Below are positions 1 through 57,102 of a stretch of 64,000 bases of DNA, one piece after another (position 1 is the stretch's first letter; each line of letters opens with the position of its first letter). Location: positions 21,246 to 85,245 of the forward strand of contig JBIOJO010000002.1 in NCBI GenBank assembly GCA_044450965.1. The letters run 5' to 3'. Below the pieces are notes generated by a model. The model was not told the DNA's origin. It was given only the letters and a program-made list of their open reading frames with translations, and made no database searches. Source of the stretch: Elusimicrobiota bacterium (GTDB taxonomy: Bacteria > Elusimicrobiota > Elusimicrobia > UBA1565 > UBA9628). Made by a program: the position numbers and the translations under genes.

Positions 1-723
1 GCGGCCAGCGAGGCCAAATCCCGCTTCCTGGCCAACATCTCCCGGGAGTTCGGCAATCCGCTGAACGCGATCATCGGCTTCGGCGAGATCCTCCTGCGCC
101 GCCAGGACGGCGAGCTCAACCCCGAGCAGGACGAGGATCTCCGCGCCATCGTCGACGGCGGCCGGCGTCTGGGGGCCCTGATGGCGGAGCTGATGGAGCT
201 GGCGCGGCTCGAGGCCGGCGCGGTGGAGGTCTCTCTCCAGCCCGTGGCGGGCCGAGAGGTTCTCGAGGATCTGCGGCGGCGATTTGCCGCGGAAGCCGCG
301 AAGAAAGGACTGTCGCTGCGCGTGGAGTTCGGCGAGAGTCAGGCGCAGGTCCAGGCCGATCCGGAGCGCCTGCGCCAAGCGCTCGCCTACATCGTCGCCA
401 ACGCGATCAAGTTCACGCCGCGGGGCGGAGTCGCCTTGGGGATGCAATCGAACGAGGCGGAAGTCGTTTTCAGCGTCCGGGACGAAGGCCCGGGCATTTC
501 GCCGGAGGAAAGGGAGAAGATCTTCGAGCCGTTCTGGCAATCCCGGCGCTTGGAGGGGGTGAAGAAGACGCAAGGGCTCGGGCTGGGGCTGTTCCTGGCC
601 AAGCGGCTGGTGGAGCTGCAGGGAGGAACGCTCGTCGCCGGCAAGGCGGCCGGAATGGGAACGGTTTTTTTCGTGCGCCTGCCGCCGGTGCCCGCCGCGG
701 AGTCCGTGAAGGAGGGACGATGA
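1..723 (+). CDS. Sensor histidine kinase, C-terminal part (HisKA dimerisation region plus HATPase_c). The gene starts upstream of the window. The H-box reads SREFGNPLNAIIG, so Arg sits where the phospho-His is expected.
   Basis: Frame-1 translation from nt 1 gives AASEAKSRFLANISREFGNPLNAIIGFGEILL (HisKA-like), then a G1 box DEGPGISPEE and a G2 box GLGLGLF. It ends 4 bp into the downstream receiver gene. Confidence 0.7.
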   Translation, partial: AASEAKSRFLANISREFGNPLNAIIGFGEILLRRQDGELNPEQDEDLRAIVDGGRRLGALMAELMELARLEAGAVEVSLQPVAGREVLEDLRRRFAAEAAKKGLSLRVEFGESQAQVQADPERLRQALAYIVANAIKFTPRGGVALGMQSNEAEVVFSVRDEGPGISPEEREKIFEPFWQSRRLEGVKKTQGLGLGLFLAKRLVELQGGTLVAGKAAGMGTVFFVRLPPVPAAESVKEGR

Positions 724-1109
724 TCACGCTGCTGGCCGTCGACGACATGCCCGAAAATCTCAGGCTCGTGCGCAAGCTCCTGTCCACGCAGGGCTTCCGC
801 GTGCTCGAGGCGTCGAACGCGGAAGAGGCCCTGGCGATCGCCTCCCAGGCGATGCCGGAGATTCTCCTGGTGGACCTTCGTCTCGGAGCGGGAACGCTGA
901 CCGGCTTCGAGCTGGCGGAGCGCGTCCGGAAGCTGCCCGGAGGCGCCGATGCGGTCATTCTGGCCATCAGCGGCGGCGCCGTGATCGATGACGAAGCCCG
1001 GACCCGGGCGACCGGTTTCGACGGGTTCATTCTCAAGCCCTTCGCGTTCGGCGAGTTCGCCGACCGCCTCAAAGACTCCCTGGCGAAAAAGAAGAAGCCC
1101 CGGCCGTAA
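720..1109 (+). CDS. Single-domain response regulator receiver (CheY-like)
   Basis: MITLLAVDDMPENL...LVDLRL...ILKPF carries the receiver Asp and Lys signatures. ATGA overlap with the upstream kinase. Confidence 0.8.
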   Translation: MITLLAVDDMPENLRLVRKLLSTQGFRVLEASNAEEALAIASQAMPEILLVDLRLGAGTLTGFELAERVRKLPGGADAVILAISGGAVIDDEARTRATGFDGFILKPFAFGEFADRLKDSLAKKKKPRP

Positions 1110-1126: not shown

Positions 1127-3151
1127 ATGATCAGGTGGTTGCCTGCGGCGTTACTGCTGGCTTGCGGCGCCGCCCTCCTCCGGGGCGACTCCCCTCCGGC
1201 CATGCGGATCGGCGTGCTCAAGTTCGATACGGCCGACGCCGCGGTCAGCGGCGCGGCGGCCGGCGACCTGTTCAGCGCCGCCCTCTACCGGAATTTTCCC
1301 GGGCTCTCCGTGGTCGGGCCGGCTCAGGTGGAAGCCGTGATCTCGAGGGAGCATCTTCCCAGGGGGAACGAAAGGCTGGACCCGGAAGCGGCCGGGGCGC
1401 TGCAAAATGCCCTGGAGGTGGACGCGCTGGCCAGCGGGACCATCATGGCGTTGGAGACGAACGCCGACGGAGGGGGAGGGACGCTGATGATCGGCGCGCG
1501 CCTCATGAAGCTCCCCTCCGGCGAGATTCTCTGGGCGGACACGCGGACGGTCCGCATCGGCGCGCCGTTGCTCAAGAGAATGCTGGGCGCGCCGCGGGAA
1601 TCCGACGCGGTTCTTGCCGGCAAGCTCCTGGAGCTGGGGGTCTTCCAGCTGGTCCAGGATCTCGGCCAGCGCCTTCCCGAGGAGGCTCTCGCTCCCACGG
1701 ATCGCGGCGCCGGAGAACGCTCGGACGAGCGCTGCGCCCCGCCGGCCTTCTATGAAACCCTGGCGCGAGACGCCGACTGGTTTTACGGCGTCGGCAAGGA
1801 CCCGGACACCGACAAGGCGCGCGCGGCGGCCCTGGCCAATCTCGCGCTGCAGGCGACCGGCCGGGCCGACGGCCTGGCGACGGACACCGGCCTGCTCGCG
1901 GGATGGGAGCAGGACGACTTCCGGCGCTGCAAGGGGTTCAGCTACGTCATGGTCCGGATCGGGAAGGCGCGGGTGCGCGAGTTCCTCGCGCGGAACCCAG
2001 GCGCCGGCGCGAATACCGTGCTGCAGGATCTGAAGCGGCGCCTGGACGTCCTCGAGTCCAGCAATAGCCGGATTCTCGACCGTTCGGCGGAAAATCCCCG
2101 GCGGTCTTTGGCTCCCCTGCTCATGAAGGACACCATCGCGAGCGTGAAGGCCTTGATCGGCTCCGGCACCGCGCTGGATCAGGTCGTGCGCGCCAACGTC
2201 GCCAGCACCGAGATGATCTTCTCGGACCTGTTGCGCCCGCAGGCGCGCTGCGGGGGGACGAAGTGCCCGGGAGGGCCGACGCTGGAGCAGGCCGGCTTCA
2301 TCGCCAGGGCGCGCCGCAAGATCGCCGCCGGAACCATCGCCGTGGACGACGTCGTCTCGGTCCACGCCATCTTCGCCCATTATTCGAAGGCCGACGACGA
2401 TCGCGAATTCCTCGAGGCCGTCATTTCCCGGAAGCGCCCCGCGGCGCCATCGTCCGAGGATTACGAACACACCCGCGAACTGGCTTTCCCTTTGGCCTGG
2501 AGCGCGGCCTTGGCCCGCGACGACTGGGCCCGATTCTTCAAGTACTGCACGGATTACCTCCGGATGTTCCCGCAGGGCATCTACGCCGCGGCGGCGGAAA
2601 AAAACAGGGAGAACGCGGCCGATATCCTGATGCTGCGGAACATGGAGATCTCCGCCGCTCCCTCCAAATTAACCGCTGTGGGGAATTGGGTCAACGAATT
2701 CTTCTCGCCGCCCGTCAGCGACTTCCACGCGCGTCAGCAGGAAGAGATCAGCAAGGCCGTGCAGGAGGGCCTGGACTCATTGAGGACGTCGTCCGATCTT
2801 GAGGCGAGCGCACTGGTACCGGACGAGCCTCGGGGGCGTCCCGCCGATTCGGAGCCGATCTCCGCCGGGGAGGATTCCGCCGCGATCGCCAGGGGCCGCG
2901 AGCTTTACCAGCGGGACTGCGTGAGATGTCATGGAATCGAGGGAAAGGGCAGCCCCGCCGTGATCGCGATGTTCCGGCTGTCTCCCGAGGCCATGGATCT
3001 CACGCGCGTCAACCTGGATGCCTATTCTCCCGACGGCCTTTCGATCACGCTCAAAGACGGAAAGAAGGCCATGCCGGAATATAAAAAGGCCCTGAGCCGC
3101 GAGGACGCTCACGCCCTGCTGGAATATCTTCGTCGTCTCCGCGACGAGTAG
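1127..3151 (+). CDS. Exported multidomain protein: N-terminal LpoB/CsgG-like domain and C-terminal mono-haem c-type cytochrome domain
   Basis: Signal-like N-terminus MIRWLPAALLLACGAALL. RIGVLKFDTADAAVSG...LEVDALASGTIM resembles the LpoB/CsgG-like fold. C-terminus has CVRCHG (CxxCH) followed by Met-containing loops. GGAG lies upstream of the ATG. Confidence 0.55.
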   Translation: MIRWLPAALLLACGAALLRGDSPPAMRIGVLKFDTADAAVSGAAAGDLFSAALYRNFPGLSVVGPAQVEAVISREHLPRGNERLDPEAAGALQNALEVDALASGTIMALETNADGGGGTLMIGARLMKLPSGEILWADTRTVRIGAPLLKRMLGAPRESDAVLAGKLLELGVFQLVQDLGQRLPEEALAPTDRGAGERSDERCAPPAFYETLARDADWFYGVGKDPDTDKARAAALANLALQATGRADGLATDTGLLAGWEQDDFRRCKGFSYVMVRIGKARVREFLARNPGAGANTVLQDLKRRLDVLESSNSRILDRSAENPRRSLAPLLMKDTIASVKALIGSGTALDQVVRANVASTEMIFSDLLRPQARCGGTKCPGGPTLEQAGFIARARRKIAAGTIAVDDVVSVHAIFAHYSKADDDREFLEAVISRKRPAAPSSEDYEHTRELAFPLAWSAALARDDWARFFKYCTDYLRMFPQGIYAAAAEKNRENAADILMLRNMEISAAPSKLTAVGNWVNEFFSPPVSDFHARQQEEISKAVQEGLDSLRTSSDLEASALVPDEPRGRPADSEPISAGEDSAAIARGRELYQRDCVRCHGIEGKGSPAVIAMFRLSPEAMDLTRVNLDAYSPDGLSITLKDGKKAMPEYKKALSREDAHALLEYLRRLRDE

Positions 3152-3190: not shown

Positions 3191-4579
3191 ATGAGGCTGG
3201 TCCTGGCGGCCGTCGCGGCGCTGTTCTTCATGCGGATGCTGGTCCACGTGGACCCGGACGTGTTCTTCCACCTCAAGGAGGGCGGACGCGTCCTGTCCGA
3301 ACATCGCCTGCCCCTGGTCGAGGAGTACTCATTCACTCGCGCCGGCAAGGCGATGGTCGCGACCGAGTGGCTGTCGGGCGCGGCGTTCGCCGCGGCCTTC
3401 CGTCTTGGAGGCTACCCGGCGGTCGTCGTCCTCAACGTCCTCCTGATCGTCGGCGCCCTGCGGCTGATGACGAAGATCTGGGACGAGGAAGGGCCTCCGG
3501 AGAGCGCGCGGGCGCTGTTGACGGCCCTGGCCGCCTTCGCCTTGCTGAGCTTCGCCCAGGCGAAGGTCCAGAACTTCACGTTTCTATTCTTCGCGCTGTA
3601 TTTATTTTGGGTCCGTCGTTGGGAGAAAGGCGCCCGCTGGGCGCCGTGGGCCATGGCGGGGGGGCTGGCGATCTGGGTGAACCTTCACGGCGGATTCACC
3701 TTGGGGTGGGTTCTTCTCGGGGCCGTGTGCGCCCTCGATTATTGGAAGGAAAAGCGCCCGAGCGCGCTCGCTCCGTGGGCGGCGGGCACTTTCGCGTGCT
3801 TCCTTCATCCGAACGGGGCGATGGCGTTCGTTTATCCTATTTGGTTCGTCTTCGCCGCGCCCGCCGCGCGTTCATTGATCGTCGAGTGGCGACCTCTCGG
3901 CTGGGCTTGGTCGTCGGTGCCGTATTTATTCGTGCTGGCGGCGGCGCTGTACTTCCGGATCGACCGGCTTCGTTCGCGGTTCCCGTGGGCGTTCCTGGGA
4001 TTCGTCTTTCTGGTGATGGGTCTGCGCGCCCGCAAGATGATGCCGTATTTCGCGTTGGTCGAATGCGCGGCGGCGGGGTTGGCTCTGGCGGGGACGAAAT
4101 CGAACGGCTCAAGGAAGAAGTGGATGCTGGCGGGGACCGTTACGGTCTTGGCGGCCATCACGGCGGTGGAACTCTCGGAAGCACGGGGCATGACCGCGTA
4201 CGGACCGATCTCCGATTGGGAAAGGGAATTTCCTCGCGAGGCCGTGCAAAAATATATCGCGCGCGACTCCGGCAAACGGATATTTCATGCCTACGAATGG
4301 GGCGGCTATTTGACGTACAAGCTCCCGCCCGGCGATCGTGTGTTTATCGACGGGCGGTTGGACCCTTATTGGACGCTCTTGACCGACTACGAGATCTTGA
4401 TGCACGCCGCCCCCGGGTGGGAGAAGCTGGCGGCGGATTACGGCATCGAGGCCGCGCTCCTGCCTCCGGCCTCGTCCTTGGCCCGCGCGCTGGACCGCGA
4501 TCCGGGCTGGAAGGCCGTCGGCACCGACGGCCGCGCGGCCCTGTACGAGCGCCGCGGCGTCGGACCCAAGAAGGACTAG
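3191..4579 (+). CDS. Polytopic integral membrane protein, function unknown
   Basis: 462 aa with about 10 hydrophobic helices and coding-like GC3. Motif YEWGGYLTYKLPPGDRVFIDGRLDPYW near the C-terminus. No family assigned by eye. Confidence 0.5.
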   Translation: MRLVLAAVAALFFMRMLVHVDPDVFFHLKEGGRVLSEHRLPLVEEYSFTRAGKAMVATEWLSGAAFAAAFRLGGYPAVVVLNVLLIVGALRLMTKIWDEEGPPESARALLTALAAFALLSFAQAKVQNFTFLFFALYLFWVRRWEKGARWAPWAMAGGLAIWVNLHGGFTLGWVLLGAVCALDYWKEKRPSALAPWAAGTFACFLHPNGAMAFVYPIWFVFAAPAARSLIVEWRPLGWAWSSVPYLFVLAAALYFRIDRLRSRFPWAFLGFVFLVMGLRARKMMPYFALVECAAAGLALAGTKSNGSRKKWMLAGTVTVLAAITAVELSEARGMTAYGPISDWEREFPREAVQKYIARDSGKRIFHAYEWGGYLTYKLPPGDRVFIDGRLDPYWTLLTDYEILMHAAPGWEKLAADYGIEAALLPPASSLARALDRDPGWKAVGTDGRAALYERRGVGPKKD

Positions 4580-4613
4580 GGCCTTTACCGCGGCCTCCCT
4601 GGGACTTCGCGCC

Positions 4614-5642
4614 GTGTCGCGGCGCGTCTTCAGGGACTACAATAGCGCTATGGGGAAAACCTCCGCCGTTCTGACCGCCTGGTTGCTGGCCGGGGCCGTC
4701 GCCGTTTCCGCGCAGATCGCCGCGCCGCGCGCTTCGTTCACGTCGCCCGTCGCGGCTCTTCCGGCCTTCGCCGAGCCGTCGGCCGCCGCGGCCGCCGGCT
4801 TGTCTCCGGCGCCCTTGAGCCCCGCGCTTCTCTCGGCCCCCGCGCTGGCGCCGGCGTTCGCCGCGCCGATGAGCGCCTCGGAGCCGAGGGCCCAGAAGCC
4901 CGAGAAGGCCGCCGCTCCCTCCGAGTTCCCGCGCCTCGTGGCCGATCTGATGAGCAACGACGCGGCTCGATCGAACGTCGCCGTCCAGGAACTGCTCAAG
5001 CTGAAAGAGGCGCATCTCAACGACCATCCCGATTCGGTGAAGACCCGGATCTTGGACCTCAAGCCCATGCAGATCCCGGCCGGGATGTACGAGGTCCAGG
5101 ACAAGGCCAAGAAGCTGCGTGACATGAAGAACAAGGAGTCCGAGGCCTGGCTGAAGGAGAACTCGGTGCCGGTCGTGGAGGACTACAAAGGCCGACAGCG
5201 CCCCGTGGACCACCATCACGAGGCGCGCGCGGCCTGGGAAGCCGACATCGACGACGCCTACACCCACCATTATTTCGACGACGAGATGCACGCGCGGCTC
5301 AAGGCCCTGCCCCGTGAGCAGTTCTACGCCGTGACCCGAGCGATGGGCCTGTTCTACGACCGCGACCAGTTCGGCGCCGGCCCGCATGACCCCAATCACC
5401 TGCCCGAGGACGTGCGCGGCATGGGCGACGATCCGTTCCGCAGCGTGGCCTGGCAGGTCCGCAAGCGCGGCGGCTACGACAAGACGGCCGTCCCGTTCGC
5501 GGAATTCAAATGGGCGCAGTTCTTCCGGGACCGCGTGAAGACCTACCCGACCAAAGCCGACTTCGAGAAAACCGTCGTCGAGGCGATGGCGCTGGTCCAC
5601 GACCCCGGCGCGAGCGATCTGCCCGGCTACAAATCCAAGTAG
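4614..5642 (+). CDS. Exported hypothetical protein with Ala/Pro-rich low-complexity N-region and His-rich segment
   Basis: Signal peptide MGKTSAVLTAWLLAGAVAVSAQ, then an APAL-rich linker, then a conserved-looking C-domain (VDHHHEARAAWEAD...FAEFKWAQFFRD). Confidence 0.45.
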   Translation: MSRRVFRDYNSAMGKTSAVLTAWLLAGAVAVSAQIAAPRASFTSPVAALPAFAEPSAAAAAGLSPAPLSPALLSAPALAPAFAAPMSASEPRAQKPEKAAAPSEFPRLVADLMSNDAARSNVAVQELLKLKEAHLNDHPDSVKTRILDLKPMQIPAGMYEVQDKAKKLRDMKNKESEAWLKENSVPVVEDYKGRQRPVDHHHEARAAWEADIDDAYTHHYFDDEMHARLKALPREQFYAVTRAMGLFYDRDQFGAGPHDPNHLPEDVRGMGDDPFRSVAWQVRKRGGYDKTAVPFAEFKWAQFFRDRVKTYPTKADFEKTVVEAMALVHDPGASDLPGYKSK

Positions 5643-6892: not shown

Positions 6893-8025
6893 GCTCCGCC
6901 CTCGCGCTCCTCTCTCTGCTGGGGAGCGCGGGCCTTTGGGTGTGCCTGGCGGTCACGCGGCGCCATTTCCGCGGCGCGCCGCCGGAGGCCTGCGCCCGGC
7001 CGATGACCTTGATCAAGCCGATCAAGGGCCGGGACGACGCCATGGAGGACGGCTTCCGCGCCATCGTGGCGGCGGATCCGGGCCGGACGCTGCAGGTGCT
7101 GATCGCGCTGGAGACGGCCGATGATCCGGCCTATCCCGTCGCGCGCGCGTTCGCGGACGCGCACCCGGACCGCGACATCGAGGTGGTGCTGACGGGCCCC
7201 TCCGGCCCGCGCATGGGCAAGATCCACAACATGATCGAGGCCGCGCCCCGCGCGAAGCACCGCGTCATCCTGTTTTCCGACGCCGACGTCCGCATCACGC
7301 CGACCCTCCTGTCCGACACGGCGCGGGCGTTCGACGCGGGCGCCGACGCCGTCTACGCTCTGCCCTACCACGCCTTCGTGTCCGGTCCCGGGGGCTGGCT
7401 GTTCCTGGTCGCGTTCAACCACTCGTTCTGCGTCCCGGTGGCGCTGACCTACCGCTTGGGAAAACTGCGCTCGTTCGCCGGGGCTTGGATGGGCTACACG
7501 AAGGAGGCGCTCGCGGCGATCGGGGGCCTGGAGCGCTTCGAGAACGCCATCGCCGAGGATTTCTCCTTGGGTTTGGCGGCGAGCCGGGCGGGCCTGCGCC
7601 AGGTCCTGCTGCGCGAACCCGTCCTGGTCCGCGAGACGGGGACTTCCGTGAGCGAGGCGTTCACTCACATCTCCAAATGGACCTCGATCATCTTCTGGAG
7701 CTGGCCCGCGCCGGTGATCGCGGCACCGTTCGCGAGTCCATGTTTGTTGGGATATATATCCATTGCGCTCGCCGTGACGCTGGGGCTTCCAGTGAAATTA
7801 TCGTTGTTCGCCGTGTCCGTCGCGGCGCTCTCCCGCATCGCCGTCGGCGTTCTTCAAGACGAGTTCCTCAGCGGCTCCCGCGCCCCATTCTGGAGCTACG
7901 CCTTGCTTCCCATCGCGGACCTGGGGGCGCTGATTTTCCTCCCGCTGGCGCTCCGTCGCACCGTCACCTGGCGGGGAAAAACATACCGGCTGACCTTGGG
8001 CGGGCACGCGGAAGTCGTCGCCTGA
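6826..8025 (+). CDS. Family-2 glycosyltransferase of the ceramide glucosyltransferase-like (GT21/HpnI-like) type. The start codon is uncertain: no in-frame ATG covers the N-terminal TM segment, and the possible GTG at 6826 lies inside mscL.
   Basis: TM anchor [27 protein letters not shown], then [13 protein letters not shown] motif FSDADVRI and [10 protein letters not shown]-terminal [13 protein letters not shown] resembles the WRxGRYRL tail of glucosylceramide synthases. Confidence 0.6.
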
Positions 8026-8054
8026 CCTGTCAATTTGCTAATCTCCTGATCCTC

Positions 8055-8960
8055 ATGGCGCGCACGATCCTCGTCGTTGACGACGACCAGACCTTGGTCG
8101 CTCCGCTGAAGGACGGCCTTGAGTCCGCGGGCTACCGCGTGGCCACGGCGTTCGACGCCGCCCAGGGAATCCTCCAGGCGCACGAGGCGCGCCCGGATCT
8201 GATCATCCTGGATTTCTACATGCCCGGCGGAGACGGCGGCTGGGTCTATGAGCGCCTGCGCGCCGCGCCGGACACTATGGAAATCCCGGTCGTCTTTTCG
8301 ACCGGCCTGACCTTGGAGGAGCTCCGCGAGAAGGTGAAGTCCGGCTCCCGCACGTATTTCCTGAAGAAGCCCGTGGGCTTCAACGGTATTCTCTCGATCG
8401 TGAACCAGGTTCTGGGCGAGGACCGCCGCGCCATCATGGGCGACCCCGAACTGCCGAAAACCACGGGCACCCCGCCGCCGCCCCCGGCTCCGGCGCCCGC
8501 CGCGGCCGCTCCCATCGTCCGGCCGAAGGCGCGGTTCAACGAGTTCGACGTGCGCGTCACCTACGCCGATACCGACAAGCTGGGCATCATCTACTACGCG
8601 AACTACCTGAAGTACTTCGAGCAGGGCCGCACCGAGCTGATGCGCGGCCTGGGCGTGCGCTACCGGGACCTGGAGATCACCCGCAAGCTGTTCCTGCCCG
8701 CCGTGGAGGCGCGCGTGGAGTACAAGGCGCCCAGCCGCTACGACGACCTGCTGACGGTGCGCACCTGGATCGCGGAGATGGGCAAGGCCAGCATCTCATT
8801 CGAGTGCGACGTGGTGGACAAGGACCTGGGCGGCAAGCTCTGCGCCCGTGGATTTTCCCGCCACGCCATCGTCAACGACCTGTGGCGCACCACCCGCATC
8901 CCCGAGGACCTGCGCGCCCTGCTGAGCCCGTACGTGGGCCTAGGACCTTCCGCGAAGTAG
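8055..8960 (+). CDS. Response-regulator receiver domain fused to a YbgC/4HBT-type acyl-CoA thioesterase (hotdog fold)
   Basis: N-terminus MARTILVVDDDQ...LIILDFYMPGGDG...YFLKKP is a receiver. A Pro-rich linker PPPPPAPAPAAAAP follows. FNEFDVRVTYADTDKLGIIYYANYLKYFEQGRTELM aligns with YbgC [31 protein letters not shown], catalytic Asp included. Confidence 0.8.
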   Translation: MARTILVVDDDQTLVAPLKDGLESAGYRVATAFDAAQGILQAHEARPDLIILDFYMPGGDGGWVYERLRAAPDTMEIPVVFSTGLTLEELREKVKSGSRTYFLKKPVGFNGILSIVNQVLGEDRRAIMGDPELPKTTGTPPPPPAPAPAAAAPIVRPKARFNEFDVRVTYADTDKLGIIYYANYLKYFEQGRTELMRGLGVRYRDLEITRKLFLPAVEARVEYKAPSRYDDLLTVRTWIAEMGKASISFECDVVDKDLGGKLCARGFSRHAIVNDLWRTTRIPEDLRALLSPYVGLGPSAK

Positions 8961-19900: not shown

Positions 19901-21289
19901 TTAAGACCTATCCAGCAGAGCGACGAGCTCGACGTGGGACGTTTGCGGGAAAAGGTCGACCGGCTGGACGCGCTTGAGGGAGAAGCCGGAGTGCGCGAGG
20001 AATTGGGCGTCGCGGGCGAAGGTCGCCGGATCGCAGGAGACGTACACGACGCGCCGTATGCGCTTGTCCGTGAGGAATCGGCGCACGGGCTGGGACAGGC
20101 CGATGCGGGGCGGGTCCACCGTGACGGCCACCTCGCTCGTGAGTTCGTTGGCCAGCTTCGGCAGGACGGATTCGGCCCGGCCGGCGCGGAAGCGCGCGTT
20201 CTTGACGCGGTTGCGCTCCGCGTTGCGGTAGGCGTCCTGGACCGCTTCCCGGTTTTCCTCGACCCCGATGATCTTCGGGAAGGTGTCCGCCATCCACAGC
20301 GTGAGCGTGCCGACGCCGCAGTAGAGGTCCAGGCCCATGGGGAACTTGCGGCCGCCCTCGCGCATGGCCAGCTTGGCCTCGTTGTAGAGGATCTCGGCCG
20401 AGGGGGTGTTCACCTGCATGAAGGCTCCGGGGGACATGGAGAAGCGGAACTTGCCCATCGTCTCCTCGATTTCGCGGGCGCCCCACATGCGGCGCCACTG
20501 CTCGCCGATGACCACCGACGTGCGCTCCTGCTGGACGTTGACGTGCAGGCCGATGACCTCGGGGTGCTGGGCGCGGAGCTCGGCGGCGAAGGCCTCGCGA
20601 TCGGAGAACTCGGAGCGCGTGACGACCAGGGCCACGATCGCCTGGTTCTCCACGTTCGTGCGGATGTAGAGATGGCGCAGCCAGCCCTTCCCGGTCTTGC
20701 CGTCGTAAAAGGACCAGCGGCGCGCGATGGCCATCTTCTTGACCGTGTGCGCGATGCGCACGGACAGCTCCGGCTGGATGGGGCACTCGCGCATGTCCAC
20801 GATGGTGCGCGAGCCCGCGGAGTAGAAGCCCATCATGGGGCCGTGCGGGCCGTCGCTGAAGGGAATCTGGACTTTGTTGCGGTAGCCCCACGGCTTGGGC
20901 GCCGCCTTGACCGCGGCGACCAGCTTGTCGGCGTCGGCGAACTTGCCGATGCGCTGGATGCAGTCCACCACGATGGAGCGCTTGTGTTTCAGCTGGGACT
21001 CGTACGCCAGATGCTGCCAGTCGCAGCCGCCGCAGGCCGGACCCGGACGCGAGGGCGCGGAGTGGTGCGGGCAGGGCGGATCGATGCGTTCCGGCCCGGA
21101 GGAGATCACGCGCTTGATGCGCGCGCGCGCGAAGTTCGACTTCTCCTCGAAAATCTCGACTTCCAGCTGGTCGCCGGGAGCCGCGTGGGGGATGAACAGC
21201 ACCCGGGCCGACCCTTCGGCCCGCGCGACGCCGTCGCCTTCCGGCGCCATCGAGTTGACCTTCACCGTCAGGATTTCGCCCACGCTCAT
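19901..21289 (-). CDS. rlmD: 23S rRNA (uracil-5)-methyltransferase RlmD/RumA (TRAM + 4Fe-4S + SAM MTase)
   Basis: [26 protein letters not shown] is a TRAM domain, Cys cluster CPHH...CGGCDWQH, C-terminal MTase motifs. ATG 21289 was chosen over 21340 because the latter would overlap the divergent lipoprotein gene. Confidence 0.85.
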
Positions 21290-21323
21290 GACCCCGATGG
21301 TACCAATTTTATAGAATCGACGC

Positions 21324-22154
21324 ATGAAGACCGGTTTCAAACTGCTGGCGCTGGCGGCCGCCGCCGTCCTGGGGGGCTGTGTCCCTTATCCAGGCGAACT
21401 GCCGGACGACGGCCGCGGGAACTCGAACTACGGCATCATCGAGGGCGCCTACCCGGGCCTGGACGCGGGGTCCTCCGAGCAGCAGGGGCTGCATTTCAAG
21501 GTGAAGGCCTACGGAGCCGAGGTTTCGCAGTCGGTCTCGAACATGTGCGAATCCGCCTACACTCGCGTCATGAACGACACCGGGCTGTATTCCTTCCAGC
21601 CCCGGGGCATGTACTCCATCGTGGTGTACGGCTCCCAGGACGAGTACCGCAAGAAGACCGGCCAGCCGGACTGGTCGGCCGGCGTGACCGTCGGCAACGC
21701 CATCTACACGTTCTATTCGGACCGGCTCAACGGCGTGCTGTCGCACGAGATGACCCACCTGATCTGGTTCGAGTTCATGAACGGGCGCCTCTCCGACCAG
21801 CAGCGCTGGGTCAACGAAGGCCTGGCCGTCTACGAAGAAGCGAAGGCGGGCAACCAAGGCCGCGAGCTGTTCGTCACCTTCCTTCCGACGCTGCGCTCGG
21901 CGCCGCTCCCCATGGACCAGCTTCAGAACCTGGCGCCGAACAACGAGCGGGCCTACGACGCCAGCCTGTGGTACGCGCAGGCCGAGAGCATGATCCGCTA
22001 CATGATCGAGAAGGGCGGACGCATCGGCTTCGGCCAGTTCCTCATCGCGATCCGCGACGGGCAGAATTTCGACGCGGCGGTCTTCGCGGGCTTCCCGGGG
22101 CAGTGGCGCACGCTGGGCGATTTCGAGAACGACTGGAAGCGGAGCCTCCTATGA
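21324..22154 (+). CDS. Lipoprotein with gluzincin-like HExxH...E motif (putative metallopeptidase)
   Basis: Lipobox [16 protein letters not shown]...(19 aa)...[13 protein letters not shown] overlap with copA. Confidence 0.6.
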
Positions 22155-24367
22155 GCCCGCGCGCCGAGGCCCGCCCCTCCCGGCGGATCGTGCTCCCCGT
22201 GCGCGGCATGCACTGCGCGTCCTGCGTGGCGAAGGTCGAGGGCGCGCTGACGTCCCTGCGCGGCGTCGATTCGGTCAGCGTCGATCTCCCGTCGCGGACG
22301 GTCGCGATCTCCTTTACCCCCGCGCCAGGAAAGCTCGAGGTCAAGCATCTGCGGCGCGCCATCGAAAAGGCCGGCTACGACGTGCTGGGCGAAAGCGAAA
22401 GCCGCACCCAGGCCGAGTCCATCAGCCTGCTGTCCCAGCAGGACGAGCAGAGCGCGCTGCTGACGCGCCTGCAGGCGGCCACGATCCTGTCCGTGCCGCT
22501 GATGCTGGCGCATTGGCTGAACCTGTCGGCCTACACGTCCCTGCTGATCGCGATCCCGATCCAGGTTTGGGGAGGCTGGCATTTCCATCAGGGCCTTTCG
22601 CGCGCCCTGCTGCGCCGGCGCGCGGACATGGACGCGCTGGTTTCCGTTTCGACCTGGTCGGCTTTCCTTTACAGCGCCTACGTCGTGCTGTTTCCGGAGA
22701 CCCTGCCGCCGGCGGCGCGGCTGACGCAGTGGGACGCGGTCAGCGGGTTGATCGTCTTCGTGACGCTGGGGCGCTGGCTGGAAGCGAAGACCCGCGGCAA
22801 GACGAACGAGGCGGTCGTCAAGCTGATGCGCATGACGCCCAAGACCGCCCGCGTTTTCCGCGACGGGGAAGAGCGGACCGTGCCGCTGCGCGAGGTCGTC
22901 ATCGGCGACGTCGTCCGCGTGCGTCCCGGGGAGCAGATCGGGACGGACGGCGAGGTCGTGTCCGGCCGCTCGACGGTGGACGAGGCCCTGCTGACGGGAG
23001 AAAGTCTCCCGGTCGAAAAGGCCCCCGGCTCGCGCGTGTGGGGCGGGACGCTGAACAAGAACGGCGCGCTGGAGATCAAGGTCGCGCGGTCCGGCGACGA
23101 ATCCGCCCTGGCGCGCTTGGTCGAGTCCGTGCGCGAGAGCCAGGCCACGAAGCCCAAGATCCAGCGCTACGTGGACAAGATCGCGCGCTGGTTCGTGCCC
23201 GGAGTCATCGGCCTGGCGGTGCTGACGGCGGCGGTGTGGCTGCGCTGGGGGCCGGAGCCGCGCTTCCTGCTGGCGATGACCTGCTTCGTCTCCGTCCTGG
23301 CGTCCGCCTGCCCGTGCGCGCTGGGCCTGGCGACGCCGCTGGCCGTGGTGGCCGGCATGGGGCGCGCGGCCGAGATGGGCGTCTTCATCCGCAACGCCGA
23401 GATCCTGGAGGACGTGGGCAAGCTGGACGTCGTGCTCTTCGATAAGACCGGAACGCTGACGCTGGGGCGCCCGCGGATCGCGGGCGTCGTCGCGGTGACG
23501 GGGACCGAGGACGAGATGCTGGCCTGGGCTCTGGCCTGCGAGGAGCGCTCGGAGCATCCGTTCGCGGCGCCCGTCCTGGCGCTGGCGCGGGAGCGCCGCG
23601 TGAAGGCCCCTCAGGTGGATTCCTTCGAGGCGCTCCCGGGGCGCGGCGTGATCGTCCGTTCCGGCTCGCGGCTGGTGCGCGCCGGCAGCCTGCCCTGGCT
23701 GAAGGAGGAGGGAGTTCTGATCCCGCAGGACGACGCGACGCGCTTCTCCGAGGCGGGCTCCCTGCTGGGCGTGTCCGTGGACGGGATTTTCCTGGGCGCG
23801 TACCGGATGGAGGACACTTTGCGTCCGTCGGCGGCGGCGGCGGTCGCGGCGCTGAAGGCGCGCGGGCTGGAGGTCTGCCTGGTGTCCGGCGACCGAAACG
23901 CCGCGGCCTACCGCGTCGCCGAGCAGGTCGGCATCGGCAAGGTCTTCGCCGAGGTCCGCCCCGACGAGAAAGCGCTGATCGTGCGCCGCTTCCAGGAAGA
24001 AGGCAAGAAGGTGGCCATGGTCGGCGAGGGCTTCAACGACGCGCCGGCGCTGTCCCACGCGGACATCGGCATCGCGCTGGCCAACGGGGCGGACGTGGCC
24101 ATCGAGTCCGCGGATATGACCTTGATGAACCCGGACCTGACCTACCTGTCGAAGGCGATGGAGCTCAGCCAGCGCATCCGCACGGTCATCCGGCAGAACC
24201 TGGCCTGGGCTTTCATCTACAATCTCGCGCTGATCCCCGTCGCCGCCGGCGCGCTGTACCCGAAGTGGGGCATCCTGCTCCGCCCGGAGTACGCCGGCGC
24301 CGCCATGGCGCTCAGCTCCATTTCCGTCGCCTTGAACTCGCTGCGCCTCAGGAGAAAAGATGTCTAA
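22151..24367 (+). CDS. copA: Copper-translocating P1B-type ATPase
   Basis: N-terminal HMA GMHCASC, TM CPC motif [25 protein letters not shown]-like hinge. Confidence 0.9.
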
Positions 24368-50914: not shown

Positions 50915-56362
<5,448 letters not shown>

Positions 56363-56430
56363 CGCGATACTATGCGCGCCACGGCGGAAATTATCAACGC
56401 CGCGGCTGTCAGGACTGTCAGCGGACGGCG

Positions 56431-57102
56431 TCAGACGATCAGCTGGTAGCCGGCTCTCGTCGTCGAGACGCGGTAGCCTTCGTCGCCCAAGTCCTGGCGA
56501 AGGCGCTGGACCGTCTTCTCGAGGTCGTTCTTCGTGCCTTCGCGGCCCCAGATGTTCTCGACGAGCTCCGGCCACGGCACCTCGGCTTCCCTCTGGATGA
56601 GGTGGAACAGGACTTCGAAGCGCTTCGGCGCCAGGTTGGCGATCATCTTTCCGCCGACCCAGACCGACTTCGATTCCGGCAAAATCCGGAAAACGCCGCG
56701 TGACCACACCGCGAAAGGCGGCTTCGTGCTCCGGCTGGCGAGCAGGCGCTTGATGCGCGGGACCAGCTCCGACGTCTGGATCGGCTTGCGGAGATATTCG
56801 ACCGCTCCGAGGGCCTTGATCTCGCTCTCGAAGAAGTTCGCATCGGCGGGGTAGGCGGTCAAGACGATGATGGGGATGTCGCGCGTGGCCTTGTGCTTCT
56901 TGAGGAGCCTGACGACTTCGACTCCGTTGAGCCCCGGGAGCATCATGTCCAGCAGGATTAGGTCGGGGTTGAGGGAGAGGGCCTTCTCGTGGCCCTCGGG
57001 GCCGGTGAAGGCGTAATGAACCTCGAAGCCCTGATTTCGCAGGACGTGCGAGATCAGATGCTGGAAATCTGGATCGTCTTCGACGCTGAGTATTCTGTGC
57101 AT
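56431..57102 (-). CDS. OmpR-family response regulator (REC + winged-helix DNA-binding domain)
   Basis: [13 protein letters not shown]...[13 protein letters not shown]...LRKPI, then a winged-helix C-terminus ...[25 protein letters not shown]... Confidence 0.8.

Follow-up and report, generated by a model that had tools for sequence, protein, structure and literature searches.

A conserved Elusimicrobiota histidine-kinase-like protein with arginine at the phospho-acceptor position, coupled to a stand-alone receiver

An arginine in place of the phospho-acceptor histidine

The DNA analyzed here (64,000 nucleotides of contig JBIOJO010000002.1 from an Elusimicrobiota bacterium, hereafter the window) opens inside a gene for a histidine-kinase-like protein that carries Arg in place of the phospho-acceptor His and that is coupled to a gene for a stand-alone receiver. 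Our favored reading, to which we give an even chance of being right, is that this protein is a conserved kinase-dead HisKA pseudo-histidine kinase acting as a signal-gated receiver phosphatase or as the phosphate drain of a branched phosphorelay.

Frame 1 of the window is open from the first base to a TGA stop at positions 721–723 on the forward strand and represents the 3' part of the gene, that is its last 240 codons and the stop (positions 1–723). The 240 aa fragment matches the full HisKA profile (PF00512, 1–66 of 66) at residues 5–73 with an E-value of 4.5e-16, and HATPase_c (PF02518) at residues 120–229 with an E-value of 1.9e-23. Orthologs of full length match the HisKA profile as well. 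The G+C content of the window is 66.8%.

The H-box of the fragment is FLANISREFGNPLN, with Arg at the position of the phospho-acceptor His. In its wider context it reads KSRFLANISREFGNPLNAIIGFG, just as given by an earlier interpretation made from the letters of the window (the sequence-only reading), which had claimed that the conserved His is replaced by Arg. The responsible codon, which encodes Arg15 of the fragment (R388 of the full-length protein P0286), was named correctly there as CGG; it lies at positions 43–45 and not at ∼45–47, and is two substitutions away from CAC or CAT.

The replacement itself is borne out by alignment. When the fragment was aligned with its 120 best database homologs using MAFFT, the His column contained 118 His, two Arg (the window protein and P0001) and one gap. 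Conservation extends to the surrounding columns F9, S14, E16, P20, L21, N22, and G26, and the alignment around the site is free of gaps. Phmmer alignments with solved structures likewise match R15 to the phospho-acceptor His, with no gap, in GacS (7z8n), ShkA (6qrj) and SrrB (6paj), where 'anisrefgnpln' of the window protein faces H-boxes of the type ANMSHEIRTPLN. A shift in alignment register, which the sequence-only reading had named as a possible refutation, cannot supply a His, because the 240 aa fragment, which makes up the DHp-CA part, contains none.

The residues following the Arg are E16-F17-G18-N19 (positions 46–57). The acidic residue at +1 and the Asn at +4 are kept, while the basic residue at +3 has become Gly; the roles of these positions have been described for CrdS (PMC3510030). 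Further downstream, the N-box ANAIKFT (positions 397–417) holds the Mg-ATP binding residues Asn134 and Lys137, followed by the G1 box DEGPGI of the DxGxG type (positions 481–498) and by the F-box FEPFWQS, the ATP-lid and the G2 box GLGLGL (positions 523–591). The earlier view that G1 and G2 are intact thus holds. Of the features of a functional kinase, the HisKA profile and the N, G1, F, and G2 motifs are present and the H-box His is absent.

The full-length protein and its family

The full-length protein is P0286 (613 aa), named 'sensor histidine kinase [Elusimicrobiota bacterium]' in the database. The window fragment is identical to the C-terminal 240 residues of P0286, so that fragment residue n corresponds to residue n+373, and P0286 is encoded on the same 132,135-bp NCBI contig as MFI5344924.1, the product of the downstream lipoprotein gene. 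The upstream part of the gene, a match to the HisKA hidden Markov model and orthologs that also lack the His were among the checks put forward by the sequence-only reading. P0286 provides the first, the full-length profile match the second, and the family described below the third.

Relatives were not easily found with the DHp-CA part. A word-indexed protein search with the 240 aa fragment gave a single true relative (P0001), the candidate list being filled with generic kinases. Scanning genome contigs with the same fragment returned generic kinases only, at ≤42% identity, and among the matches listed for a scan of metagenome contigs with a two-sequence alignment there were again only generic kinases, found through the unspecific peptides IFEPFWQ and KSRFLANI. 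The family was recovered via its synteny with the downstream lipoprotein and then by a search with a full-length member.

It consists of 14 distinct sequences with 42–76% identity, which stem from different records of JGI, ENA, Logan, and NCBI (P numbers denote proteins and L numbers loci). These are P0286, P0131 (L162), P0285, P0287, P0288 (L168), P0289 (L169), P0290, P0291 (L173), P0292, L170, L172, and P0001 (L081), together with P0293 (54% identity to P0286) and P0203 (42% to P0131 over the full length), which branch off more deeply. All named members come from metagenome-assembled genomes (MAGs) of Elusimicrobiota. Outside the 14, matches are generic kinases with SHELRTPLN that align over the C-terminal 37–40% only.

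In 14/14 members, Arg occupies the His position and Asn is found at +4. The core clade has the H-box SREFGNPLN, P0293 has SREPRNPLN, and P0203 has SRELRNPLN; apart from these two, only P0292 deviates, with S to A at −1. The changes from His to Arg and from Thr to Asn are family hallmarks, because the deep branches P0293 and P0203 also carry both, and the changes from Arg to Gly at +3 and from Leu to Phe at +2 arose later. The residue at +4 is Thr in the nearest canonical relatives and an invariant Asn (N392) in the Arg family, and the Glu at +1 (E389) is invariant as well.

Eight loci were read at the DNA level. No other stretch of the family is as conserved as the H-box KSRFLANISREFGNPLN (positions 16–66 in the window): its 17 codons show no non-synonymous change among these loci, with synonymous differences at 16 of the 17, and the Arg is encoded by CGG, CGC or CGA. 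The pairwise ratio of non-synonymous to synonymous substitution rates (dN/dS) over DHp-CA, calculated according to Nei-Gojobori, is 0.18–0.55, and the reading frames are uninterrupted. Taken together, the Arg in 14/14 members, its synonymous codons, a dN/dS below 1, and the intact frames exclude both sequencing error and gene decay. The suspicion of a sequencing error, which the sequence-only reading had raised against itself, is also answered by the origin of the 14 sequences in independent metagenomes or MAGs.

The nucleotide-binding motifs were compared among nine full-length members (54–75% identity). N507, A508, K510, F511, and T512 of the N-box, D534, G536, and G538 of G1, F548–S554 of the F-box, and G565–L570 of G2 are all invariant. 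The lid motif FEPFWQS is specific to the Arg family and comes with a two-residue insertion.

The cytoplasmic part of the family contains no conserved His. One candidate for an alternative His, in an SVHLS motif near the membrane helix, was rejected, as P0286 has Tyr there and both L081 and P0203 have Arg.

The N-terminal 370 residues of the full-length members match no Pfam family, and no PAS domain was found in them. Hydropathy and an AlphaFold2 monomer model indicate some six transmembrane helices at the N-terminus, then a long helix and a small alpha/beta domain (∼268–336); the final transmembrane helix continues directly into DHp helix 1 (340–388), and DHp helix 2 (414–444) and the CA domain (453–600) follow. 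The model is of moderate quality (mean pLDDT, the predicted local distance difference test, of 72; pTM, the predicted template modeling score, of 0.49). The small domain, between the multi-pass membrane region and the last membrane helix, would be extracytoplasmic. Foldseek against the PDB matched the DHp-CA core only (GacS, RetS, HK853, ShkA, and DivL) and gave no clue to the N-terminal sensor. This membrane domain was seen in the Arg family only. No canonical protein that has the His and shares this N-terminal domain came up when we searched for one, matches of the P0309 type covering DHp-CA only.

Two members, P0131 (HXS99238.1) and P0290, are labeled 'HAMP domain-containing sensor histidine kinase' by NCBI. 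This label is misleading, as the His is missing and Pfam detects no HAMP domain in two other members or in the 619 aa copy of L162, which falls into one 90% cluster with P0131.

Substitutions at the His position were also seen in proteins that do not belong to the family. The second kinase module (∼595–829) of the unrelated dual-kinase P0178 has Arg there (MSREVRTPL), and one HisKA module (∼175–400) of the unrelated dual-kinase P0163 has Gln (ITQEIRTPL). The change from His to Arg has thus arisen more than once, P0178 being independent.

The coupled receiver and the gene neighborhood

Directly downstream, positions 720–1109 on the forward strand encode a stand-alone receiver of 129 aa (MFI5344923.1) with a Response_reg match in Pfam (E-value 1.3e-16). 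Its ATG overlaps the stop codon of the kinase-like gene (ATGA, positions 720–723) and is preceded by a GGAGGG ribosome-binding site at 711–716. The same 4-nt overlap was seen from the called gene coordinates in L081, L162, L168, L169, L170, L172, L173, and L174. The receiver was aligned with the CheY reference sequence. Its residues D8, D9, D52 (GAC, positions 873–875), S84, and K106 are intact, and the equivalents of CheY D12, D13, D57, T87 (as S or T), and K109 are kept in 8/8 complete receivers, i.e., the window receiver and seven orthologs. These eight are genuine receivers rather than pseudo-receivers, and across the family loci the partner receivers are 124–136 aa long. The translationally coupled CheY-like receiver of the sequence-only reading is thus confirmed, with its catalytic residues complete.

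The third gene of the module (positions 1127–3151, forward strand) encodes a lipoprotein of 674 aa with a signal peptide, an LLAC lipobox, and, by Pfam, a CsgG/LpoB-like N-terminal domain. It is identical to MFI5344924.1, annotated as 'c-type cytochrome [Elusimicrobiota bacterium]'. The C-terminal c-type cytochrome domain (aa 585–671) is found in this genome only, while the orthologs are 463–568 aa long and lack it; the fusion suggests a redox input in this lineage. The order of Arg-kinase, receiver, and lipoprotein gene is complete in L162, L168–L170, and L172–L174, and can be followed up to the receiver start in L081. It is kept even in the deepest branch, L174, and the junctions of the module overlap or nearly abut. 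The lipoprotein homologs P0122–P0128 are all encoded directly downstream of an Arg-kinase and receiver pair.

The genes upstream of the module differ between related loci. In L162 they encode a CHASE3 chemoreceptor, a CheA-like kinase, CheB, a hybrid kinase (3681–5504), a receiver-cyclase, and both a double and a single receiver. L169 carries a kinase of the CHASE3-PAS type whose H-box is the canonical SHDLRAPL, alongside a receiver, a hybrid kinase, a receiver-cyclase, and a further receiver, and L174 has a receiver-cyclase. In L162 and L169, the loci with sufficient DNA, the Arg-protein gene is thus the last kinase-like gene of a multi-receiver cluster with genuine phosphodonors.

In the double-receiver protein just upstream of the Arg-kinase gene (247 aa; L162 6578–7321, L168 6402–7145), the first receiver-like half lacks the acidic pair and has Asn at the phospho-Asp site (VVHPDG..., IVIVNHVLPS), which gives the protein the appearance of a pseudo-receiver joined to a real one.

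Possible function of the Arg protein

With the phospho-acceptor His permanently replaced by Arg, as the sequence shows, the protein is unable to autophosphorylate on His or to donate phosphate to a receiver, which makes canonical His-to-Asp transfer impossible. A pseudo-histidine kinase is a histidine-kinase homolog that lacks at least one kinase function (Collins and Childers, as cited in PMC12632262), and the Arg protein, with the fold retained and the phosphorylation site missing under selection, is one. The sequence-only reading had described the class as a pseudo-kinase, a scaffold, or a phosphatase-only partner, and the fixed Arg, the intact ATP boxes, and the coupled receiver bear this out.

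In the favored reading of a receiver phosphatase, the DHp surface, the Asn at +4, and the complete nucleotide pocket would be retained for dephosphorylation of the receiver. The receiver would be phosphorylated by another donor, e.g., hybrid or CheA-like kinases as encoded upstream in L162 and L169, with acetyl phosphate as an alternative. The Arg-protein would then bind the phosphorylated receiver, and its membrane sensor, possibly together with the co-encoded lipoprotein, would gate the dephosphorylation. Nucleotide would act as a cofactor or conformational switch and not as a source of phosphate. The EnvZ literature describes nucleotide binding as a cofactor of transmitter phosphatase activity, which could explain why the pocket is conserved.

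Two features expected of a HisKA transmitter phosphatase are present, namely Asn at +4 (N392) and a receiver of the phosphorylatable type. The closest experimental parallel is CrdS, a HisKA kinase with the native motif HEIKNP, in which H371A abolishes the kinase and leaves most of the phosphatase activity: CrdA∼P has a half-life of 2.6 min with H371A, compared to 0.7 min with the wild type and 53.5 min for CrdA∼P alone (PMC3510030). In the same protein the Glu at +1 is needed exclusively for the kinase and the basic residue at +3 for full kinase activity, while the requirement of Thr or Asn at +4 for the phosphatase has been shown in CrdS, HK853, HK1190, and HK4262 (PMC3510030).

Several points weigh against a phosphatase. 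HK853 H260A has diminished phosphatase activity (PMC5727384) and PleC H610A is cited as losing both activities (in PMC3510030), so the part played by His in the phosphatase reaction differs between HisKA proteins. DivL keeps an ELRTPL motif and yet has no phosphatase activity (PMC4211667). The Glu at +1 is invariant in the Arg family, though it is dispensable for the CrdS phosphatase (PMC3510030), and a pure phosphatase would not obviously need either this Glu or the ATP site, which is invariant too. The candidate phosphodonors stem from related loci, the upstream DNA of the gene itself lying outside the window, and L168 has only the double receiver and no kinase immediately upstream. Finally, the pLDDT of the AlphaFold2 monomer is below 50 at residues 379–391, the H-box included, and therefore no conclusions on side chains were drawn.

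The main rival, which we find possible although clearly less probable, is a non-catalytic sensor or scaffold with reverse signaling as in DivL. The guanidinium group of the Arg would dock on the phospho-aspartate of the receiver, and binding would be read out through the membrane domain or a partner kinase without dephosphorylation. There is a precedent, as the His-less DHp-CA of DivL binds a phosphorylated single-domain receiver specifically and has neither kinase nor phosphatase activity (PMC4211667). The strictly conserved pairing with a single-domain receiver and the invariant positive side chain at the position facing the Asp of the receiver are as such a binder would have them. The nucleotide-binding motifs, however, are all invariant, unlike the weak ATP binding of DivL, and the residue at +4 changed from Thr to Asn, which is phosphatase-competent, and was then kept. 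There are also no PAS output domains, and no partner kinase was identified.

We consider it very improbable that the protein is still a kinase with a non-canonical acceptor, be it Arg388 (as phosphoarginine), another residue, or a His in trans, from which phosphate would reach the coupled receiver. The most specific form of this proposal, in which Arg388 is the true acceptor and the CA domain and the Glu at +1 make phosphoarginine that is donated to Asp52 of the receiver, is slightly more improbable still. If true, it would mean a histidine-kinase fold that runs an Arg-to-Asp phosphorelay. A kinase of some kind would account for the invariant N, G1, F, and G2 motifs, for the 17-residue H-box being the most conserved stretch of the protein, and for the invariant Glu at +1, which is needed only for kinase chemistry in CrdS (PMC3510030). 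Against this, a guanidinium group is only poorly nucleophilic, the core clade has Gly in place of the basic +3 residue required for full kinase activity, and nucleotide binding is also explained as a phosphatase cofactor. We know of no HisKA protein that phosphorylates Arg, and McsB, the known bacterial protein arginine kinase, has a different fold.

An artefact or a decaying gene (a His codon misread in sequencing or assembly, a pseudogene, or an H-box aligned wrongly while the real His is elsewhere) has a negligible chance of being the explanation: a single sequence with one deviant codon would permit an error, and the unrelated P0060 has a one-residue gap at the His column that is possibly such an error, but this reading is refuted by 14/14 Arg, three synonymous Arg codons in the eight loci read as DNA, a CGG two steps from His, intact frames, the dN/dS values, a DHp-CA part free of His, and alignments that are gap-free against Pfam, the 120 homologs, and PDB sequences.

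Roughly 1% of HisKA domains are without the His (PMC12632262), and the few that have been studied, such as DivL and PsmA, differ from each other. With its invariant Arg and Asn, its conserved ATP pocket, and its coupled and catalytically complete receiver, the Arg family offers a natural test of two debated questions, namely whether phosphatase activity in HisKA proteins depends on the His and which role nucleotide binding has when a transmitter is unable to autophosphorylate. Public annotation names the family members ordinary sensor histidine kinases, and pathway reconstructions for Elusimicrobiota would therefore wrongly wire the pair as a classical two-component system.

Other genes in the window

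Downstream of the module, the window encodes a 462 aa membrane protein, a secreted ParB-like nuclease, a receiver, a glycosyltransferase, and a receiver-thioesterase. The nuclease (positions 4614–5642, 342 aa) has an Ala/Pro-rich, signal-like N-terminus and a ParBc_2 nuclease domain (E-value 6.8e-37), and is encoded next to the signaling genes. The receiver-thioesterase is listed as an open reading frame at 7485–8960, although its true start is probably well inside, and combines a receiver (aa 195–306) with a 4HBT thioesterase (aa 358–478), which is an uncommon receiver output.

Two long genes further downstream also stand out. The reverse strand at 50915–56707 encodes a hybrid kinase of 1930 aa with 8–9 tandem HAMP/HAMP_2 domains, GAF, HisKA, HATPase_c, and three receivers, the poly-HAMP array being unusually long. 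The open reading frame at 19934–24367 (1477 aa) contains a heavy-metal P-type ATPase (HMA, E1-E2_ATPase, and Hydrolase) in its C-terminal ∼720 aa. For its N-terminal ∼750 aa Pfam gives no match, and this part may represent an over-extension of the reading frame in high-GC DNA.

Comparison with known systems

The phospho-acceptor His is missing in 0.9% of HisKA domains (722 of 76,471; PMC12632262), as compared with 14/14 in the Arg family. Literature searches for a natural or engineered His-to-Arg change in the H-box gave nothing specific, and no paper describing the Arg-type family was found.

With the canonical class I HisKA kinases, such as GacS of Pseudomonas aeruginosa (7z8n), ShkA of Caulobacter crescentus (6qrj), HK853 of Thermotoga maritima (3dge), and CrdS of Myxococcus xanthus, the Arg family shares the DHp and CA fold, the domain order, and the full-length profile matches. 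The N, G1, F, and G2 boxes, the acidic residue at +1, the Asn or Thr at +4, and a receiver in the operon are likewise found on both sides, and CrdS even has the same Asn at +4 natively (PMC3510030). The Arg family differs from these kinases by the change from His to Arg throughout, the change from a basic residue to Gly at +3 in the core clade, the FEPFWQS lid with its two-residue insertion, and the N-terminal membrane domain without Pfam match.

DivL of C. crescentus (4q20) is the paradigm of a repurposed transmitter, and the sequence-only reading had drawn a parallel to it. The analogy stands: DivL also has a class I core without His and a single-domain receiver, DivK, as its functional partner (PMC4211667). 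It differs by its Tyr in place of the His, its multiple PAS domains, and its weak binding of ATP, and it is neither a kinase nor a phosphatase (PMC4211667). Homology in any closer sense does not stand, as DivL ranks sixth by sequence among solved structures in phmmer (E-value 1.5e-23, against 5.4e-34 for GacS); the Arg protein is no more similar to DivL than to ordinary kinases and is not a DivL homolog. The gene of DivL is not known to be coupled to its receiver gene, unlike the Arg-kinase-like gene.

PsmA, a hybrid pseudokinase of Streptomyces, is another conserved natural HisKA-type protein that lacks the H-box His and has no autokinase activity (PMC12963549). In PsmA, however, the residue at this position varies (E, D, Q, V, or Y), D/ExxT/N has disappeared, and we have a hybrid protein of the cytoplasm that binds DivIVA (PMC12963549), whereas the Arg family has an invariant Arg, has kept ExxN, and has a membrane sensor and a separate receiver instead of a fused receiver domain.

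The engineered kinase-negative, phosphatase-positive mutants, i.e., CrdS H371A and substitutions of EnvZ H243 and NtrB H139, have lost the His and kept the Asn or Thr at +4, as in the Arg family. For EnvZ, the His is cited as not being required for phosphatase activity and yet as enhancing it (in PMC3510030). Compared to these laboratory mutants the Arg family is natural and evolutionarily fixed, and it has Arg specifically. It represents a natural, fixed, Arg-type pseudo-histidine kinase that is distinct from both DivL and PsmA, and that is set apart by the combination of an invariant Arg, the ExxN motif, an intact ATP site, a membrane-sensor architecture, and an obligatory coupling to an intact receiver and a lipoprotein.

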